Shown: positions 8,306-39,977 of the stretch, piece by piece
Numbering within the stretch: position 1 is the first letter of the stretch
Layout of the letters: each line of letters opens with the position of its first letter
Assembly: GCA_018304385.1 (NCBI GenBank)
Contig: JAGVWJ010000013.1
Span: forward strand, 1 to 41,211
Source: Candidatus Micrarchaeota archaeon
Lineage (GTDB): Archaea > Micrarchaeota > Micrarchaeia > Anstonellales > Bilamarchaeaceae
Direction of reading: 5' to 3'
DNA length: 41,211 nucleotides
Position numbers and translations under genes: made by a program
Notes under the pieces: model-generated
What the model was told of the DNA's origin: nothing
Seen by the model: the letters and a program-made list of their open reading frames with translations, nothing else
Database searches by the model: none

Positions 8306-8439
8306 GTCCCGCCTTTTAGGTAAAAGGCGGCCCAAAACTGTTTCGTTAATAAATACTAACGACACAGTTAGAAATAAAATTAGAACCCAACTTTTTAAAA
8401 ATAGGAGGCCCATTGCCCAAGGCTCATTGTTCATGATAG

Positions 8440-19314: not shown

Positions 19315-20145
19315 ATGGCAGAGAGTTCAATATCAACTTATGCGTATATTTCATTTGGTTTAGGAGTTCTTGGGTTTATACTTACTATTAGTGGAAATGT
19401 ATTTAGTTTGATTGGTGGAATTCTTACTGGTATTGGCTCTGTTTTCGGTATTTTATTTATTAAGTATGATTATATCATGGTTCCACTGGTAACACAGAAA
19501 ACAAGAACAATAACATTAGCAGGATTCGGAGGTTATGAACTCCCTCCAGCGCAGGATGTTATTGTAAAACAGGTTGGTAATAATTATTATGCATCATCAT
19601 TTATGAGTATAGAGATTTTCAAATCTCCGACAGAAGAACCTCGTGAAGAAACAATGAAATACAATGAATTTTTCGAACGTGCAGTATCCAGTCTGAGGCA
19701 CGTAACAAAGATCGCATATCTAATACAGGTTGAAGATATCAGCAAAAAAAGACAAGAGTTAGAAGCAAAAAGGGCAGAGGCGCAGGCAAAACTAGCGCGC
19801 GAGCGTCAAAAACCAATGGATAAAGAAGGAAAGCAGAGGATGGTTGTAGATGCATATGAAAAAGAGTTTGAACTATGGGATAGACAATTGGCAAAGATTG
19901 CAAAAGGGAGAAAGCCAATGGGGATACTCGCATATGCAATGGCCACTGCTGTTGGCGTTAGTAGGGATGCAGCTATCTCAAATGTGCGTGCACATGCTGA
20001 GGAAGTAAAAATAGCAATAGCAAATTCACTAAATGTTGAAGTAAAGGTATTAAGTGGTGAAGAGCTGTTAAAATGTTTTGAATGGGAAATATTTTTCCCA
20101 ACTACTGTTCAGGATATAGAAGGAGAGGCATTAGCAAATGTTTAA
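19315..20145 (+). CDS. Membrane protein with two N-terminal TM helices and coiled coil (paralog 1)
   Basis: Gly-rich hydrophobic N-terminus. Shares PPAQDVIVK, YNEFFERAVS and NSLNVEVK..LKCFEWE motifs with the next gene. Confidence 0.85.
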   Translation: MAESSISTYAYISFGLGVLGFILTISGNVFSLIGGILTGIGSVFGILFIKYDYIMVPLVTQKTRTITLAGFGGYELPPAQDVIVKQVGNNYYASSFMSIEIFKSPTEEPREETMKYNEFFERAVSSLRHVTKIAYLIQVEDISKKRQELEAKRAEAQAKLARERQKPMDKEGKQRMVVDAYEKEFELWDRQLAKIAKGRKPMGILAYAMATAVGVSRDAAISNVRAHAEEVKIAIANSLNVEVKVLSGEELLKCFEWEIFFPTTVQDIEGEALANV

Positions 20146-20154
20146 GGTGTAAAT

Positions 20155-20943
20155 ATGCCAACACAAAAGAAAATGTTATCATATGCTTCTGTCGGCATAG
20201 GTGGCCTTGGCATAGTCTTGGCACTATCTGGGGGTCCGCTTGGCGTGTTTGGTGCTGTATTCTCTTTGGTTGGTACATTAATTGCTGCAGGTCTTCTTAG
20301 CTATGGGTTTATAACAAAAATGTTTAACATAAATATTGTAAGCAGCACCGAAGATTATGAGATACCACCCGCCCAGGATGTAATTGTAAAACACGTTGGT
20401 AGTATTTATTATGCTACTTCATTTTTGAATATCGAGATATATGAATCACCTACTTCTCAGATAGATGAAGGAACATATTACAATGAATTTTTCGAACGTG
20501 CAGTATCAAATCTAAGATATGTAAGTAAAATCGCATATATCATGTACGTAGAGGACATAAGCAAAAAAAGGCAGGACATAGATACAAAAAGAGCAGAACT
20601 GCAATTAAAACTACAGAGAGAGCGTGATAAGGGTGATCCTGATCCACTGAGAATGGATAAGCTTCAAGCTGAACTAAAAGAATTTGATTATCAGCTAGAA
20701 AAATTAATAAAGGGTATAAAACCAATGGGAGTACTTGCATATGCAATGACAACTGCAGCTGGTATTAGCAAGGATGCAGCGATGACAGCAGCTCGTGCCC
20801 AGGCTGAGCAGGTTCGAACAGCAGTATCTAACTCACTAAATGTTGAGGTTAAAAAACTAAGTGGAGATGAGATGCTAAAATGTTTTGAATGGGAAAGGTT
20901 TTTCCCAACTAGTATTCAAGAAATAGAAGATGCGGTAGGATGA
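20155..20943 (+). CDS. Membrane protein with two N-terminal TM helices and coiled coil (paralog 2)
   Basis: Colinear with 19315..20145. A 29-nt DNA patch is identical (19660-19688 = 20479-20507). Confidence 0.85.
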   Translation: MPTQKKMLSYASVGIGGLGIVLALSGGPLGVFGAVFSLVGTLIAAGLLSYGFITKMFNINIVSSTEDYEIPPAQDVIVKHVGSIYYATSFLNIEIYESPTSQIDEGTYYNEFFERAVSNLRYVSKIAYIMYVEDISKKRQDIDTKRAELQLKLQRERDKGDPDPLRMDKLQAELKEFDYQLEKLIKGIKPMGVLAYAMTTAAGISKDAAMTAARAQAEQVRTAVSNSLNVEVKKLSGDEMLKCFEWERFFPTSIQEIEDAVG

Positions 20944-20951
20944 TGCAGTGA

Positions 20952-20985
20952 GTGCCAGGGGGCTCCGCCCCCTAGCGTAACCCCC
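20952..20985. repeat. GC-rich hairpin repeat family member (5-G/5-C variant)
   Basis: gtgccagggggctccgccccctagcgtaaccccc differs from the 33379 and 39945 copies by one extra G, one extra C (stem preserved) and one substitution. Confidence 0.88.
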
Positions 20986-21025
20986 AGTTTCGGTTTCCAG
21001 TTTTGTTGGAAACCAAATTCATAAG

Positions 21026-21182
21026 TAAGGTCTCAAACTGCCGACGCAGCCTAAGTCGAACGAAGCGAGGTGTCGCAGCAGCGACGGAGTCTCGCTTCCA
21101 GAGCAAGAAGACTGCGTCTTTATAGAAACTATATGTATTACGACGGATTCATGAGAATGAAAAAATAGGAGAATGACATAGC
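21026..21182 (+). promoter_or_regulatory. Conserved structured leader, copy A (upstream of ATPase)
   Basis: Stem gacgcag 21043-21049 pairs with ctgcgtc 21112-21118. It ends ggagaatgacatagc-ATG and is homologous to the spacers at 22746-22904 and 24492-24706. Confidence 0.7.
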
Positions 21183-22745
21183 ATGCAATTCGGTAAATTG
21201 AAATTGGCAAAAATATCAAACAAAGAACTTGCAAGAAGGAACATATTAGTTAGACCGCCAGAACCACCGCTCGGTATTTTGATGAAGGATCCAACAAATT
21301 CAATTTATATTGGAAAAACAGCAGTTTTTCAAATTCCGTTCTATTGGACCTTTGATAACGTAAAAGCGCCACACATAGTAGTTGTAGGTATGACTGGAAG
21401 CGGGAAGAGTTATTTTATAAAAACATTCTTGCTGCGCGCAGCGTTTGTATGGGGCACGAATTCTTTAATATTTGATTGGGCTGGCGAATACAAGGATTGG
21501 GCACGTGAAAAAGGTAAGGTCATTGCATTAGGTAAAGGTTCTTATATAAACCTGCTTGATCTTGGTGGCATGAAACCATACGATCGTATAGATCAGATTA
21601 TGAAAACACTTCTCCTTGTATTTGGTAATGATTTAGATCAGTTTGACGAGCGAAAAAGGTTAATTGCAGGTGCACTTGTAAAAGCATATCAGGATGCGAA
21701 GTTTAGACTTGATTCCAGTGAGCATAAAGACGAGCTTGGAAAGCCGTTAACACCACCAACGCTTAAAGATGTTGTCAGGGTGCTCGAGGATTATCAGCAA
21801 ATGGGAAATTATCCTTACCCCACGGAACTTGCAGCATCTATTGACTTGCTAAAGAAATTCACAAGAAGTGGACAGGATTATTTTGCACAGCCTAGCACTG
21901 TTAGTTTGGATGAACTAGTTACTTCTGGTATTGTAGATCTAGATCTTTCTGGTCTGCCCTCAGAAGAGCAGCGCGTTTTAGGTGCGCTAACGATATTACA
22001 GTTTGTAAAAGAAAAAATGAGGCTAATGGGTTATTCAAAACAACGCGGGTTAAAGCTGCTTGTTGTTATAGATGAGGCATGGAAGATTGCTGGTGACGAT
22101 AACAGCGACGTCGTTTTAATAGTAAGAGAAGGTAGAAAATATAATTTTGGTGTGATAGTAGCAAGCCAGAGTCCAACAGATATTAGTCCAAACATATTCA
22201 GCAATGCAGGAACAATATTTATTCTTAATATATTCAAACCAGATGCCCTTAATTATTTGCAGGATGCATTGCAATTTAGTAATTACATAAGAGACCAGAT
22301 AATACAGTTTCCGCAAGGTCGCGCAGCAGTTAAAATGTTTTTACAGGAACAAACATCTAAATTCTCGGGTAAGATGTTTGTAGTTGATAAAATTGAAGGT
22401 GAAGAGGCCAGCAAGCAATACTTCCTGACATTGGACGAAGTATTAACTAAAAAGCAAAAGGCAGAAGGCATGGAGCCATTTACTGCACTTTCAACAGATG
22501 ACCTAAAAAGAAGGCTTGTGCAATTTGGTGTTAGTAATGATAGGGTGGATGCTATTCTTAAAAAATTCGAAAAGCAGCCAGGAAGAAGGCTCGATATAAT
22601 ATCCTATGTTATAATGCTTGAACAATTTGAATTAGATAGAAGAAGCATAACAGAGTTCTTAAAAGATGTAGGCATAGATGACATAACTATAATAAATATA
22701 TTTGGTAAAGTAGATTTAAAGAAAGCAGAATTGAAAGCAGCGTGA
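21183..22745 (+). CDS. P-loop ATPase of the VirB4/HerA/FtsK (DUF87-like) group with extra C-terminal helical domain
   Basis: Walker A GMTGSGKS, Walker B LLVVIDEAW, and REGRKYNFGVIVASQSPTD typical of HerA/VirB4. Confidence 0.88.
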   Translation: MQFGKLKLAKISNKELARRNILVRPPEPPLGILMKDPTNSIYIGKTAVFQIPFYWTFDNVKAPHIVVVGMTGSGKSYFIKTFLLRAAFVWGTNSLIFDWAGEYKDWAREKGKVIALGKGSYINLLDLGGMKPYDRIDQIMKTLLLVFGNDLDQFDERKRLIAGALVKAYQDAKFRLDSSEHKDELGKPLTPPTLKDVVRVLEDYQQMGNYPYPTELAASIDLLKKFTRSGQDYFAQPSTVSLDELVTSGIVDLDLSGLPSEEQRVLGALTILQFVKEKMRLMGYSKQRGLKLLVVIDEAWKIAGDDNSDVVLIVREGRKYNFGVIVASQSPTDISPNIFSNAGTIFILNIFKPDALNYLQDALQFSNYIRDQIIQFPQGRAAVKMFLQEQTSKFSGKMFVVDKIEGEEASKQYFLTLDEVLTKKQKAEGMEPFTALSTDDLKRRLVQFGVSNDRVDAILKKFEKQPGRRLDIISYVIMLEQFELDRRSITEFLKDVGIDDITIINIFGKVDLKKAELKAA

Positions 22746-22904
22746 CTACTGCAGTGGGCATTGAGCCAATTGATGGCTTCATTTATATGTGTGAGACACC
22801 AAATTGCCGACGTGGCATAAAGAATATATAAGACCACGTCTATATAGAGAACATAAGTAGTACGACGAATATGTAATAATGAGAAAATTGGAGAGAAACA
22901 TAGC
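22746..22904 (+). promoter_or_regulatory. Conserved structured leader, copy B
   Basis: Stem gacgtgg 22809-22815 pairs with ccacgtc 22834-22840. It ends ggagagaaacatagc-ATG. Confidence 0.7.
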
Positions 22905-23207
22905 ATGGTAAAAAGCATTGTTTTTTTAAAAGAAGAATTACGTCGAAAGATGAGACAATACGGTCTTTCAGAAGAAAAAATAGAAGACGTAAGCAGAACA
23001 TTTGAAAAAAATAATCATCATATTGATACAATTTCGTTCGTTATTCTATTAGAGCGTTTTGGTCTGGATAGAAGAAGCATAACAGAGTTCTTAAAAGATG
23101 TAGGCATAGATGACATAACTATAATAAATATATTTGGTAAGGTAGATTTAAAGAAAACCGAGATGAGTGGTTCTCGAGAGATATCTAATATAATACTGGA
23201 AGAATGA
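22905..23207 (+). CDS. Stand-alone paralog of the ATPase C-terminal domain (100 aa)
   Basis: Aligns to the last ~85 aa of the ATPase. DRRSITEFLKDVGIDDITIINIFGKVDLKK is identical in both. Confidence 0.82.
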   Translation: MVKSIVFLKEELRRKMRQYGLSEEKIEDVSRTFEKNNHHIDTISFVILLERFGLDRRSITEFLKDVGIDDITIINIFGKVDLKKTEMSGSREISNIILEE

Positions 23208-23216
23208 GGCGGTAAA

Positions 23217-23717
23217 ATGGCGATAAATGAAATTAAAAAAACACCAAGTGGTTCAAAGATATGCGTAATATGCCATAAGGAAGTTACTGGCAACGCGCTA
23301 AAGGTAAAAGATGATTTTATTATAAATTCAATAAGGGGGGTTAAAAGATTATTTAGAATTGCCCAGAATAATAAGCTCTTTGTTTGTGATAAAGATATAA
23401 ATGTGCATAAAGAAAAGAGAAAAAAATTTGAAAAGGAACTTCTTATCATCAGTGCAATTGTAGTTATAATAATTTTATTATTAAATGGTTTGCCTTTGCT
23501 GTCAGGGAGATTCCAGTTTAGTATGTTACTATCATCGCTTTTTATAGCAATACTTATTATTTTATTTGCCATTGTTTTTAAGTATGCGCCTGCCGTAGAA
23601 GAAACAAAAGATTTAATTTCTTCAAGAGTAAATACTTCAAAAGTGATAGGAGGCCTCAAGGGGCAGGGAGAAAAACATAAGCGCCCCCTGCAAAAAATAA
23701 AAAAGGGAGGGAGTTAG
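23217..23717 (+). CDS. Membrane protein with N-terminal Cys motif (CxxC...C) and two TM helices
   Basis: CVICHK and FVCDKD motifs, two hydrophobic helices, Shine-Dalgarno-like gaggcggt upstream. Confidence 0.8.
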   Translation: MAINEIKKTPSGSKICVICHKEVTGNALKVKDDFIINSIRGVKRLFRIAQNNKLFVCDKDINVHKEKRKKFEKELLIISAIVVIIILLLNGLPLLSGRFQFSMLLSSLFIAILIILFAIVFKYAPAVEETKDLISSRVNTSKVIGGLKGQGEKHKRPLQKIKKGGS

Positions 23718-24491
23718 ATGCCTAATACACCAACACCACCTTCGGTTGCTAAACAGCCACCGGCTCTGCTAAACGCCGAGGTTAATGTGCCTAGGGTAGA
23801 TGGTTTTAAAGTAAAAGGTTCTGTAAGAACAAGCTTAAAGGAAATAGCTGATTCTTTAAGATCATTATCATTTTTACAGGTCGCACAAGAAAGAGATGCC
23901 GTTAATGCGGTTTATGTTGAATCAAGGGATATTAGAAAGGCGCCATATCTTTTTTCTATAATAAAGATTCAAAGCGATGAAATGGAGGTAGTTTATTCAA
24001 TACCTAAAGAAATCGCACCAAAGAAGCGGAAAATGGACATTGTTCGTTATGTTTTAAACATACTAAGTCTGATAGAGCAATCGTATAAGATTGATAATAA
24101 AGTTTTATACCAGCTTATTGAGAATGCACTAAAAGAAATTACAGAGACAATGAGTTTAGAATATTCTAGGCTATATACCGAGTTTGACGGTATTAAAAAA
24201 GATATGGATGATCTAAAAAGAAAGGTATCTAGATTAACAGAAGAAAATCAAGTGTTACTGACTAAAAATTATGAAATAAAAGGCAAGAGTGATGAGTTGC
24301 TTTTAAGATTAAAAACATTGGAAAATATATCAGATGAGGCATTAAAGGTGAAGTTGCAGACATGGATCTCTGAGCATAATGGGGAGATCAATATGGCAGA
24401 ATTCTCTAAGATCCATAATGTAGTTGAGACAAAGGTGGAGGAAATATTGAATAGGCTTGTTAGCGAGGGCTATTTAACGAGTATACGATAG
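23718..24491 (+). CDS. Hypothetical protein with coiled coil and C-terminal winged helix
   Basis: Heptad region around residues 135-205. The C-terminus GEINMAEFSKIHNV...VEEILNRLVSEGYL is wHTH-like. It starts immediately after the previous stop. Confidence 0.78.
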   Translation: MPNTPTPPSVAKQPPALLNAEVNVPRVDGFKVKGSVRTSLKEIADSLRSLSFLQVAQERDAVNAVYVESRDIRKAPYLFSIIKIQSDEMEVVYSIPKEIAPKKRKMDIVRYVLNILSLIEQSYKIDNKVLYQLIENALKEITETMSLEYSRLYTEFDGIKKDMDDLKRKVSRLTEENQVLLTKNYEIKGKSDELLLRLKTLENISDEALKVKLQTWISEHNGEINMAEFSKIHNVVETKVEEILNRLVSEGYLTSIR

Positions 24492-24706
24492 ATTGGCTTT
24501 GGGCCTTGAGCAGTGAGCCAACTTATGCTTCATTTCCATAAGGTTTCATAGAACGGCTGACGGAGCCCAGGTTTATATAAGACGACGTCCCTATAAGAAC
24601 CATAAAGAAACCGACGGCTTCGTCATAATGAGACAAGCTTGTCACAAAGTGACAAGATGCCTATTGTTGCATCGCAACAATCAGGAAATAGGGGGAAAAC
24701 ATAGCC
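24492..24706 (+). promoter_or_regulatory. Conserved structured leader, copy C
   Basis: Shares tgagccaa..atg.cttcattt, taaggt.tca, gc.gacg, tatataagac.acgtc, cgacg and ataatgaga motifs with copies A/B. It ends gggggaaaacatagcc-ATG. Confidence 0.65.
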
Positions 24707-27232
24707 ATGGAAAGAAAAATAATAATTACAAAAAGGATATACAAATTTGAGACGAAAAAGAAGTACCAATATATTAAACAATATAAAATAAAAGAAAAGA
24801 CAGCAACAGAGAAACTAAAAGATGCTATAGGAGCTATTTTTAGATCAAAACCAAAAGAGGAAAAAAAGACAACTGAACAAAAGCCATCTCGTTTTAATAC
24901 GAAAGTAGCTATTGGGGCTATACTAATTGCATTATTATTGTTATTTGCAGGTTGGGCGTACATCCAAGGTCAATTAGTAAAGGTTGATGAGCTACCAAGG
25001 GCACCGGAAAAACCAAGTTTTGATTTAGAAATAAAGGATAAGGGAATAATAACTGCAGGTGATCGAAGAACTGATAATAGTGTTGCATATTTGAGAACTA
25101 AAATGTCTTTGCATGGCATTGAAAAATACGATTTAAAAATGACCACATATGAAGATGTGTTGCCAAGTGAGGTATATATATTACTAAGCGAAAGACATCA
25201 AGCAGAAAACTATGATGAGTTTTTATCTTCTTTGAAGAAGGAATTAAGCATATATAAGATTGCTGTTAATGAGATTGATTTTGAAAAACTTGAGACATTG
25301 CATGGTGGTTCTCTAGTAATTGTGCCGAGTGGGCTTATACCAGAGGAGTTATTAGGCATAAACAGTAAGGTTGATCTTAACAAGTTAGTTTCCAGAGGCG
25401 TTGTAATTGTATATATAGGTCAGAAATTTGATAAGATGATTACCAAAACTGGCTCAACACCGCCAGTTCCAGCTGGTTTTACTGGCGGCCTGTCAATAAA
25501 TTTTAATGAACCCAGCATTACCAGCACTGATGGTTTTAATCTTTATCAGGCGCTTTATAGAGCAACTGGTAATGGTGAGAATTCTCTTATGTATGGATCG
25601 GTTAGTGCTATTAAAAAAGGTAATGGTGCTCTATTATTGTTGCCTCAAACTATTGATGGAGGTTGGGTTGATGAGCAGATACAGCCAGCCCCAGAAAAGG
25701 CAGGAAAAGACATTGCCAGGATTATACTTGAAACAAGATGGTCACCCCCTAAAGGTGGTCCAAAAATTTATTCTGCTAATGTTACAAATCAAACGACAAT
25801 TGACTTTTTTACGAATACATTTACTAAAGATGTACATACTATAAAGTTAGAGTTCACTGCTTATGCTAAGAACAATATAAACATCTCCCAGATATTAAAT
25901 ATCCAAATAAAAAAGAAAACAAAAGGCGCTGTTTATATTGAGGGAGGGGCAGTTGTAACTCCAAGAGAGGTTACTGGTGAGTTTACAAGACTAACCGCAG
26001 TGCTTCAAGAGGATAGCACAGAGAAAAAACAGCTTTTTATTAAGATCACTAAAAATGGGGAAGAGGCAACAGAATTGCAAAGTCTTGGTCTCTTGAACCT
26101 ACAGATAGATCATCCTACAAGCAGTTCGATAGACCTAGATAGCGGAGAGTACATCATATCAATAGTAGATGATGAAGGCATGGTTTATGCAGAAGGTTAT
26201 CTTAATGTTGCTTTCATAGATATAAGACATAGGCCAGATTTAGGTCTTTATTCGTTTGGAATAGAACGGGAAGGAAAACCAAAAGCAATGAAAAGAGTTA
26301 ATGTGACGGTAGATAACAAATATGGTCCTTACTCATTTGAGAATGTGGATATTCTCTCTGTTGATCCAACAAAAGATGCAGGTGGGTTGTTACCTGCAGG
26401 TGATCATACATTTATATTCAGGATAGGAAAAATAAAGATAGATCGAACAGTAACAATTCCAAAGCAGACTAATATATTTACTGATCCATTATTCCTGGGA
26501 ACGATCGCTGCTGCAGTTATCATTACTGCAGGAGGAGTTTTTCTTGCTAAACAAGAAAAGGTAACATATCAATTGGATATACCAGATTTTCCACCAATAG
26601 CAAAGGTTAATGTACCACTTACAAAAGATGTAATATTAAGCATTTTTGATCGTATAAACGAAGATTATAAATGGAAGTATAGTACCCTAACAATAGCAGA
26701 AATAAGAAATGGTTTTAAGAAGATGTTTTACCAGGGAAAGCCCATTTACGTGACAGATTATAATGTAGAGTATATACTTAATCAGTTATCAGGAAAAGGT
26801 GATGTAAAAGAATTTCTTGGTTATTATGGTCCAGCTAAATGGGAGAAAGAAACTAATAAATCTATAAGATTATTGGCATTATTCCGTAAAATCAGGGATA
26901 TTTGTGTAAGCAATGCAGTGCCCTTTACCCAATACGGTGAAAGCGAAAAATGCGATAGCGAGATAACCGCAGTTGGTCAGGATATGTTTTTGCACATATA
27001 TGATAAGGATAGAAACTTAAGCGATTTAGTAAATCGGGTTTTAGGCACAATAAAAGATGGAATGAGTATCGTTATATTCAAAAATGATTTTGCAGAGCGC
27101 GAGTTTCAAAGCTATCTTGCAAGTTCGAGCAAGGCGTTACTTACACTTAAGCTAGAGGTTGAAGGCGGAAGCGTTGCGCTGTTTACTTTGGAAGAATTTG
27201 AAAGTAAAATAAAGGAATTGAAAGGTGTTTGA
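24707..27232 (+). CDS. Large bitopic membrane protein (841 aa): basic N-terminus, TM, ~500-aa probable extracellular region, TM, cytoplasmic domain
   Basis: Hydrophobic helices at VAIGAILIALLLLFAGWAYI and LFLGTIAAAVIITAGGVFLA. No recognised family. Confidence 0.85.
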   Translation: MERKIIITKRIYKFETKKKYQYIKQYKIKEKTATEKLKDAIGAIFRSKPKEEKKTTEQKPSRFNTKVAIGAILIALLLLFAGWAYIQGQLVKVDELPRAPEKPSFDLEIKDKGIITAGDRRTDNSVAYLRTKMSLHGIEKYDLKMTTYEDVLPSEVYILLSERHQAENYDEFLSSLKKELSIYKIAVNEIDFEKLETLHGGSLVIVPSGLIPEELLGINSKVDLNKLVSRGVVIVYIGQKFDKMITKTGSTPPVPAGFTGGLSINFNEPSITSTDGFNLYQALYRATGNGENSLMYGSVSAIKKGNGALLLLPQTIDGGWVDEQIQPAPEKAGKDIARIILETRWSPPKGGPKIYSANVTNQTTIDFFTNTFTKDVHTIKLEFTAYAKNNINISQILNIQIKKKTKGAVYIEGGAVVTPREVTGEFTRLTAVLQEDSTEKKQLFIKITKNGEEATELQSLGLLNLQIDHPTSSSIDLDSGEYIISIVDDEGMVYAEGYLNVAFIDIRHRPDLGLYSFGIEREGKPKAMKRVNVTVDNKYGPYSFENVDILSVDPTKDAGGLLPAGDHTFIFRIGKIKIDRTVTIPKQTNIFTDPLFLGTIAAAVIITAGGVFLAKQEKVTYQLDIPDFPPIAKVNVPLTKDVILSIFDRINEDYKWKYSTLTIAEIRNGFKKMFYQGKPIYVTDYNVEYILNQLSGKGDVKEFLGYYGPAKWEKETNKSIRLLALFRKIRDICVSNAVPFTQYGESEKCDSEITAVGQDMFLHIYDKDRNLSDLVNRVLGTIKDGMSIVIFKNDFAEREFQSYLASSSKALLTLKLEVEGGSVALFTLEEFESKIKELKGV

Positions 27233-32899: not shown

Positions 32900-33634
32900 T
32901 TATTTTAATTTAAAATAAATTCTTCTATTATTTTTTCCTTTGTTTTCTAATTTTATTAGTTCTATTTTGCCAACCTCGTTAGTATTCTTAACATGCGGTC
33001 CACCATCTGCCTGAATATCTATCCCTGGAATTTCCAGTATGCGAAGTTCTTTTATTTCTGGTGGCAACGCGCCAGCAAGCTTGACTACACCTGGAATCTT
33101 AAGTGCTTCTTCTCTTGGAAGAAAGTAGATTTTAATTTCTACGTTTGTCTTGAGTGCTTCATTAGTTTTTCTTACATATTCTTCAATTAGTTCGCGTGTT
33201 GGATTTTCCAAGTTAAAATCTATTCTGCTCTGATCGGTATCAATTTGATTGCCAGTTATAAGTACGCTTGCCTCTTTGTTCATTATACCTACGAGTGCAT
33301 GCGCTGCAGTATGCATGCGCATTAGCTTATATCTGCGCTCCCAATCTATAATACATTTGACGTGGTCACCAGTTTTCAGTGCCAGGGGCTCCGCCCCTAG
33401 CGCAACCCCCTTTTGATTTAGTTCGTGTACTATCTGACCCTCGGATTTCACAACACCCACAACCCCGAACTCACTACCCGTAACAATTATTTTTCCTGTA
33501 TCGCTCGGCAGCCCACCACCACGCGGATAAAAACAAGTTTTATCCAATACAACTTTTCCATCATTTACACTAACTACTTGCGCATCGCATTCTTTTATGT
33601 AACTGTCTTCTAAGTAAAGCGCTGATTCTTTCAT
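32900..33634 (-). CDS. alaX: Alanyl-tRNA editing protein AlaX (AlaX-M type)
   Basis: Motifs LYLEDSY, LDKTCFYPRGGGLPSDTG, RMHTAAH (HxxxH), QADGGPHV. Confidence 0.92.
   Translation of the reverse strand: MKESALYLEDSYIKECDAQVVSVNDGKVVLDKTCFYPRGGGLPSDTGKIIVTGSEFGVVGVVKSEGQIVHELNQKGVALGAEPLALKTGDHVKCIIDWERRYKLMRMHTAAHALVGIMNKEASVLITGNQIDTDQSRIDFNLENPTRELIEEYVRKTNEALKTNVEIKIYFLPREEALKIPGVVKLAGALPPEIKELRILEIPGIDIQADGGPHVKNTNEVGKIELIKLENKGKNNRRIYFKLK
33378..33411. repeat. GC-rich hairpin repeat family member inside alaX coding sequence
   Basis: Exact reverse complement of 39944-39977. It is translated as (K)GVALGAEPLA(L). Confidence 0.9.
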
Positions 33635-39441: not shown

Positions 39442-39945
39442 ATGCGCCTCATATTATTTACAGTTCTCTTAACCTTCCTTTTCGGTTGCTCATTGCTGCA
39501 GCAAACGCAAGAGGAGAAAAAACAAGACGTTACGAATGTAAAAAATAGATCGCTAGACTTATGGAAAAAAAGTGAACCAAAGATAGAAAATAAAACACCT
39601 GTTGAAATACCTCCTCCACCAGTAATAGAAAATAAAACCGAGAACACATCCGTTCAAGGCTCACTGCCCAATGCTCAAAGCTACAAGCTGAATCTAGGTG
39701 AATCAATAGTCATAGATGGAAACGTATATACGTTCTGCGATTACGCTCATCGCGTAGCCACAACAACCAAGATATCATTTTGCCTAGGAAATAGTCCAGC
39801 ACTTGGTTTTCATGCATTAGTTAATCAAGAGGTGCCAGTTGGTAATTATACAGTATTAGTTACAAAGTTTGTTCCAAAGGATAATGTAATTGGATTGCCA
39901 GAGATTCCCTATTTGGAACTTACTTTATCACCAAAGGTTAATTAG
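39442..39945 (+). CDS. Lipoprotein-like secreted hypothetical protein
   Basis: MRLILFTVLLTFLFGC start and Pro-rich linker. Confidence 0.7.
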   Translation: MRLILFTVLLTFLFGCSLLQQTQEEKKQDVTNVKNRSLDLWKKSEPKIENKTPVEIPPPPVIENKTENTSVQGSLPNAQSYKLNLGESIVIDGNVYTFCDYAHRVATTTKISFCLGNSPALGFHALVNQEVPVGNYTVLVTKFVPKDNVIGLPEIPYLELTLSPKVN

Positions 39946-39977
39946 GGGGTTGCGCTAGGGGCGGAGCCCCTGGCACT
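39944..39977. repeat. GC-rich hairpin repeat family member forming the whole spacer between two convergent stops
   Basis: agggggttgcgctaggggcggagcccctggcact is the exact reverse complement of 33378-33411. Confidence 0.9.

Follow-up and report, generated by a model that had tools for sequence, protein, structure and literature searches.

A dispersed, hairpin-bearing repeat in front of genes in a Micrarchaeota genome, with three copies in a HerA-like ATPase operon

Why three long spacers within a single archaeal operon resemble one another is the question raised by positions 20944 to 24706 of contig JAGVWJ010000013.1 from a Candidatus Micrarchaeota archaeon (assembly GCA_018304385.1). The whole contig, 41,211 nt in length, is referred to as the window; it is contig C33 of the assembly, labelled G000 (1.53 Mb, 36.5% GC, 65 contigs, 89% complete). 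The spacers A (20944-21182), B (22746-22904) and C (24492-24706) are the exact stop-to-ATG gaps between the co-directional open reading frames (ORFs) 20155-20943, 21183-22745, 22905-23207, 23718-24491, and 24707-27232, one of which encodes a HerA/VirB4/CedB-like ATPase. A first-pass annotation had read them as homologous structured leaders, forming an undescribed cis-regulatory RNA, processing signal or MITE (a transposable element of the miniature inverted-repeat type) that supplies translation starts and coordinates the ATPase system. The analysis presented here finds that each spacer carries one copy of a dispersed repeat of about 120 nt, which we regard, on sequence comparisons and with somewhat better than even confidence, as a genus-restricted portable promoter/5'-leader cassette in which transcription probably begins at more than one point.

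Copies, placement and relatives

The homology of the three spacers was borne out. A, B, and C align along shared blocks (MAFFT), and a repeat search of the window returned a 63-nt family with three copies at 70-71% identity. One block that had been counted in, the common GCAGTG(A/G)G start, is part of separate heptamer arrays, (GRGCMNT)n, which follow stop codons and are independent of the cassette. The proteins encoded downstream of A, B, and C have unrelated N-termini, and simple gene duplication does not explain the likeness, as had been argued. Rfam gave no match at gathering score in the whole window, and no description of the cassette was found in the literature searched.

G000 was searched using iterated nhmmer and a covariance model (R1) built from an alignment (A3) of 33 cassette copies. 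The core of the cassette (about 115 nt) gave 43 matches on more than 25 contigs with iterated nhmmer, and the same 43 copies were recovered by R1. Nearly every copy points toward a gene, in a single orientation, and ends 1-4 nt before an ATG or TTG or before the 5' end of a tRNA-Ala; two tRNA-Ala genes in G000 have the cassette directly in front. The protein genes behind copies encode GlmS, a KH protein, a FlaJ/TadC-like protein, Spt4, FEN-1, a PIN protein, aIF2-gamma, an FNR-like reductase, L30, RpoN, glutamate dehydrogenase, GT2, and PyrI, and the proteins downstream of copies belong to unrelated Pfam families. Confinement of the copies to the ATPase system, which the first-pass annotation had left as a check, is thus not observed.

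R1 was also run against two congeneric genomes (G001 and G002) and 38 other genomes of the family and order. Eleven copies were found in G002 and four in G001, and none in the 38 others. Public collections added one metagenome-assembled genome (MAG), 'Candidatus Micrarchaeota archaeon isolate nzgw32', and three metagenome contigs; on public genome contigs a first sequence pattern had no match and a second matched one Micrarchaeota MAG and one chance sequence, while 3 of the 66 metagenome pattern matches were true copies. Sites occupied in several species are those at Spt4, PyrI, tRNA-Ala, tRNA-like RNAs, and a membrane protein, and at these the 3' part, from the TATA-like box to ACATAG, is best conserved.

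The ATPase operon is kept in both congeners (ATPase 77% identical in G001 and 87% in G002; 841-aa protein 54% and 67%) and is free of the cassette in each. It is compact in G001 (locus L078), where the junctions orthologous to A, B, and C measure -4, 1, and 11 nt, and in G002 (locus L079) they are filled by unrelated sequence (53, 100, and 74 nt) that contains small hairpins of other kinds. A, B, and C belong to three different subfamilies and find their closest matches on other contigs (81%, 80%, and 74%), their mutual identity being 64-74%. The empty orthologous junctions and the closer kin on other contigs indicate that the three copies are independent, lineage-specific arrivals.

Several copies run into tRNA-like starts called by no tool. 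In the whole of G000, ARAGORN called two tRNA genes and RF00005 four, despite 89% completeness; the tRNA genes seem heavily interrupted, and one tRNA-Ala has a 47-nt intron. ARAGORN found no tRNA in the window. When six loci behind copies were compared with Rfam, only one tRNA and one weak minus-strand match resembling the signal recognition particle (SRP) RNA were obtained. Two tandem copies precede the same non-coding gene, starting with GGGC, in G000 (C12:67430-67700) and G001 (C10:9173-9389), and a weak SRP-like match lies near this gene on the opposite strand.

A covarying hairpin and signals at the gene start

The only helix predicted by RNAalifold from the 33 copies is a 7-bp hairpin. 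Across this alignment 99.1% of its cells are paired and five of the seven pairs show double changes; none of 500 shuffles equalled it, and slid controls paired at 21-50%. Pair types are mixed within columns (for example CG 20, UA 11, AU 1 in one and AU 17, GC 14, UA 1 in another), with only two G-U cases and no A-C case. There are at least six distinct paired versions of the stem, including CAG, TGG, CGG, GCGAC, GATGC, and GCAAC, with TCG in a relative, and orthologous copies at two RNA-gene sites have TGG in G000 and CAG in G002. In the window the stem is GACGCAG (21043-21049) with CTGCGTC (21112-21118) in A and GACGTGG (22809-22815) with CCACGTC (22834-22840) in B, all on the plus strand. 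The double change first noticed between these two copies is a real compensatory one, and the covariation holds when more copies are included. In C, on the same strand, GACGGAG (24559-24565) and CGACGTC (24583-24589) form only 4+1 pairs, a weakening that had also been seen at first. Judged by its covariation, the hairpin is under selection for pairing.

Apart from this hairpin, the folds of B and A are at shuffle level (z = -1.3 and -1.2), and the strong fold z-score of C comes from two inserted perfect hairpins. The switch-like layout that had been proposed, with a downstream GACG as alternative partner for CGTC, did not hold up: this helix is paired in 63.9% of cells versus 63.0% in shuffles, and its four invariant pairs show no covariation. 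The two mutually exclusive conserved pairings of a riboswitch or attenuator were accordingly not found. A long-range 10-bp pairing predicted in C (UGACGGAGCC with GGCUUCGUCA) was set aside since it is absent from related copies, as was a conserved mini-ORF (ATGAGAAAATAG), whose ATG is missing in about 6 of the 33 copies and whose length is not conserved.

A Shine-Dalgarno (SD)-like motif at -12 to -8 is present in 20 of 21 protein-preceding copies versus one of nine copies without an ORF behind (Fisher p = 1.3e-5), and copies of the latter kind occur in both stem types. With the SD tract selected in protein copies, transcripts of these copies must start further upstream. The proposal that the spacers supply translation starts was upheld to this extent, given the SD-like tract and the way the cassette abuts the start codon.

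Signals for transcription were examined against those of the genome at large. Of 524 unambiguous ATG starts in G000, 381 (about 73%) lack an SD, and these show a sharp TATA peak (TTTWTAAA) at -30 to -23, an A-rich position for the B recognition element (BRE) and T at -1; by this pattern G000 is predominantly leaderless. Relative to the ATG, the proximal TATA-like 8-mer of the cassette (TTTATAAG, TATATAAG or TTTATAAT) keeps a constant position at -35, which places it 5 nt upstream of the genomic mode. From this spacing, transcription is predicted to begin within the conserved ACATAG, 3-5 nt ahead of the ATG or tRNA; the need for the cassette to lie flush with gene starts would then be explained. 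RNA copies and protein copies do not differ in TATA-only score. Candidates for an additional upstream start are a TTTAYATAAG box about 30 nt before the hairpin and a near-invariant CTATAGAG box; read-through is a further candidate source of longer transcripts.

Weighing the explanations

Under the reading that we favour, the cassette is a portable gene-front module. It combines TATA-like boxes, the selected 7-bp hairpin and a conserved ACGACG...AATGAGAAA block, and ends in an SD-like GGAGG in protein-preceding copies and a conserved ACATAG(C) abutting the ATG or tRNA 5' end. In the G000 lineage, a once compact HerA-like ATPase operon received copies of three subfamilies at three of its junctions, and from these copies the downstream genes probably obtain transcription and/or translation start signals of their own. 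The hairpin may act in RNA or in single-stranded DNA.

Several observations weigh against this reading. A start at ACATAG leaves the SD untranscribed, so that a second upstream start or read-through is needed. No TATA candidate of the cassette reaches typical scores on a leaderless-promoter position-weight model derived from G000's own starts, and the BRE position is occupied by a GC-rich ACGACGG rather than by A-rich sequence. A and C have a poor proximal TATA, which in C is separated from the ATG by a 51-nt insertion. The GGAG-type subfamily, consisting of C and several copies in relatives, has a 4-bp stem only; as this weak stem recurs in G001 and G002, the hairpin seems to be favoured and not indispensable. 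Finally, the copies are mutually only 70-90% alike.

Promoter regions reused before unrelated genes are documented in prokaryotes as putative mobile promoters (PMPs), for which the criterion is an identity of 80% or more across 50 nt or more upstream of non-homologous genes (Matus-Garcia, Nijveen and van Passel 2012; PMC3575422). BLAST pairs of the cassette exceed both values before genes for unrelated proteins, among them B with a copy on C24 (85.9% over 99 nt), B with C24:44669 (91.4% over 81 nt), and another pair (85.6% over 97 nt). The cassette thus fits the operational definition of PMPs as far as sequence goes, with a promoter geometry that is compatible and position-weight scores that are mediocre. 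Both PMPs and the cassette are similar upstream regions before non-homologous genes, with no known mobilising element and no Rfam match. PMP families are, however, mostly pairs and mainly bacterial, whereas the cassette is present about 43 times in the 1.5 Mb genome of a DPANN archaeon, reaches the start codon, serves tRNAs too, and carries a covarying hairpin.

The intergenic repeats of halovirus HF2, for which reporter tests demonstrated promoter activity (Russ, Pfeiffer and Dyall-Smith 2021; PMC8707807), are likewise repeats of an archaeal system with AT-rich motifs before genes, a resemblance in proposed function only. They are 29 and 58 bp long, viral and positionally conserved within a virus genus (PMC8707807), and unlike the cassette they have no compensatory hairpin and do not stand before cellular tRNA genes; the two share no sequence similarity. 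Correia, ERIC, and REPIN/REP elements (listed in PMC3575422) resemble the cassette in being repeats that are intergenic, dispersed, about 100-150 nt long and equipped with stem-loops; some of them supply promoters or change the expression of neighbouring genes (PMC3575422). Correia and ERIC have terminal inverted repeats and target duplications, neither of which was found in the cassette, whereas REP/REPIN depend on RAYT (a Y1 enzyme) and lie mostly after genes, neither of which was found here. Nor are the copies GC-rich palindromes after genes or between convergent genes, as in REP/BIME elements, since they face gene starts.

A selfish non-autonomous mobile element of REP-, PATE- or MITE-like kind would account for part of these data, its hairpin being recognised in single-stranded DNA by a recombinase and its gene-start position reflecting target preference, or survivorship in a compact genome, instead of a part in expression. 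Such an origin is consistent with the uneven copy number among congeners (43, 11, and 4), with lineage-specific insertions into an otherwise compact operon, with loops that accept large insertions (A; G002:C21) and with a genome full of other small hairpin and heptamer repeats, and hairpins acting in DNA would covary too. We nevertheless consider it rather unlikely. The cassette has no terminal inverted repeats; the sole inverted repeat of its consensus is the internal 7-bp hairpin, and its ends (ATAAGAAA... and ...ACATAGC) are not complementary. At the three filled sites no target-site duplication is seen against the empty orthologous sites in G001, as the insert spans the full stop-to-ATG gap with no duplicated flank, and ACATAG at both ends was rejected as such a duplication, since within copies the two hexamers showed no covariation. 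Taken with the non-random placement, these results speak against the ordinary MITE that had been offered as one possibility. Partner transposases of the Y1_Tnp (PF01797) and TnpB zinc-ribbon (PF07282) families were not matched in G000 while control genomes were; as the assembly is 89% complete, this falls short of proof. No near-identical copies were found in G000. The SD tract varies with downstream gene type, which argues for selection on expression, and the Spt4, PyrI, and tRNA copies are kept across species with their promoter-proximal part best conserved.

A bolder version of the promoter reading would join the cassette to the heptamer array as a self-propagating 'complete intergenic unit' that holds a 3'-end signal, promoter, hairpin, ribosome-binding site, and start context. 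By copying itself precisely onto gene starts, independently of a transposase, such a mobile regulon-builder would break up operons and place about 3% of genes, including tRNAs, under one hairpin- or ACGACG-binding factor. Taken as a whole, this combination is unlikely.

A shared cis-regulatory RNA leader appears still less probable. In that case the whole cassette would be transcribed from a promoter lying at its 5' edge (TTTAYATAAG) or ahead of it, and a hairpin at the 5' terminus of the RNA would bind a common factor or shield the RNA from 5' exonucleases, so that some 40 genes and tRNAs would be co-regulated. Many copies have a TATA-like TTTATATA/TTTACATA about 28-30 nt before the hairpin, from which a start at the stem is predicted; selection on the SD tract shows that the region is transcribed in protein copies, the hairpin covaries, and long tRNA leaders could be trimmed off with the help of a candidate RNase P RNA in G000 (69 bits, below the family cut-off of 84 bits). 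The upstream TATA is, however, absent in about one third of copies and scores poorly on the G000 promoter model. The shuffle-level folds of B and A beyond the hairpin, the lack of support for a second structure or alternative pairing, and the persistence of the weak-stem subfamily in three species likewise tell against a structured leader.

An element dedicated to the ATPase cluster, be it a riboregulator, a switch or a processing signal, has next to no probability: three copies do lie within 3.8 kb of one operon, but forty others stand elsewhere before unrelated genes and tRNAs, the operon's orthologues in G001 and G002 lack the cassette, and A, B, and C come from different subfamilies with no covariation in the alternative pairing.

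Make-up of the spacers and their surroundings

Each spacer is a mosaic of a heptamer array after the upstream stop codon and one cassette copy that runs up to the start codon, all on the plus strand. Other repeat families, outside the cassette, are found in the 5' part of A (20944-21017): a short start of heptamer type (GCAGTGAGTGCC), a hairpin repeat rich in GC (GGGGGCTCCGCCCCC), and a GTTTCC/GGAAAC hairpin. The R1 match begins only at 21018. Copy A, with a CAG-type stem, occupies 21018-21182 (R1 94.7 bits; nhmmer recovers it as two halves) and ends in GGAG (about 21168-21171), ACATAGC, and the ATG at 21183. Its extra length comes from a 49-nt double-hairpin insertion inside the cassette loop (about 21057-21105).

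Spacer B begins (22746-22784) with a heptamer array (TGCAGTGGGCATTGAGCC, about 22750-22767), which belongs to the 3' end of the upstream gene, followed by a T-rich stretch with TTTATATG (22782-22789). Copy B (22784-22904; TGG-type stem) is the most complete copy, with an R1 score of 123.6 bits. It has a CTATATAGAG box, ACGACG, the TATA-like TATGTAAT (22870-22877), AATGAGAAA, and GGAG (22890-22893), and ends in ACATAGC before the ATG at 22905.

The 5' part of spacer C (24492-24533) has a heptamer array at 24501-24518 (GGGCCTTGAGCAGTGAGC), beginning 9 nt past the stop codon, and then a T-rich stretch. Copy C, with the GGAG-type weak stem, occupies 24534-24706 (R1 match 24534-24650, 72.7 bits), with GGGGG at 24691-24695 followed by ACATAGCC and the ATG at 24707. 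It owes its extra length to an insertion of about 51 nt, made up of two perfect hairpins before the SD-like tract (about 24635-24685), which recurs at 88% identity in the PyrI copy (C44:2719-2822).

The other repeats in these spacers have distributions of their own. At least 76 heptamer arrays are present in G000. They typically begin 4-20 nt past a stop codon, frequently form inverted pairs where two genes converge and mostly have no adjoining cassette, and they look like a 3'-end module. Those in the window are at 24501-24518 and 22750-22767 and, on the minus strand, at 39659-39676 and 8408-8425. The GC-rich hairpin repeat (CCAGGGGGCTCCGCCCCCTAGCG) occurs in the window at 20951-20985, 33378-33410, and 39945-39977; other contigs hold at least 12 more copies, 86-95% identical. 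Leaders and loops also carry inserted small cassettes of perfect double hairpins, such as CTTGTCAC-AAA-GTGACAAG and ATTGTTGC-ATC-GCAACAAT (window 24635-24685; G000:C44:2719-2822; L079 1892-1991), and hairpins like them fill the G002 spacer orthologous to B.

The host operon (19315-27232, plus strand) is conserved and has seven genes, encoding two proteins without assigned function, the HerA/VirB4/CedB-like ATPase (21183-22745), a 100-aa protein, a 166-aa membrane protein, a 257-aa coiled-coil protein, and an 841-aa protein. All family matches of the ATPase are far under the equivalog cut-offs, and no family match was obtained for the 841-aa, 276-aa, 262-aa, and 257-aa proteins of the operon. 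The relatives have a second, paralogous ATPase locus (G001:C4; G002:C105) at 43-44% identity. The 3' end of the ATPase gene (22593-22734) recurs as a 142-nt direct repeat (85% identity) in the middle of the 100-aa gene (23025-23166), and by sequence comparison the 100-aa protein duplicates the C-terminal domain of the ATPase. As proteins, the two share just 52-54% identity in G001 and G002, which suggests recent gene conversion in G000.

For annotation, the three spacers should be labelled as repeat copies and not as a riboregulator of the ATPase system. The roughly 60 natural variants of the cassette provide material for the study of promoters, leaderless starts, and 5' hairpins in Micrarchaeota. 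If the cassette is active as a promoter or leader, it would be a testable archaeal case of 'promoter propagation', a field in which few cases go beyond sequence similarity. Regulatory DNA would then be spreading through a very small archaeal genome, before protein and tRNA genes alike, and tight operon junctions would have been turned into separately controlled units.

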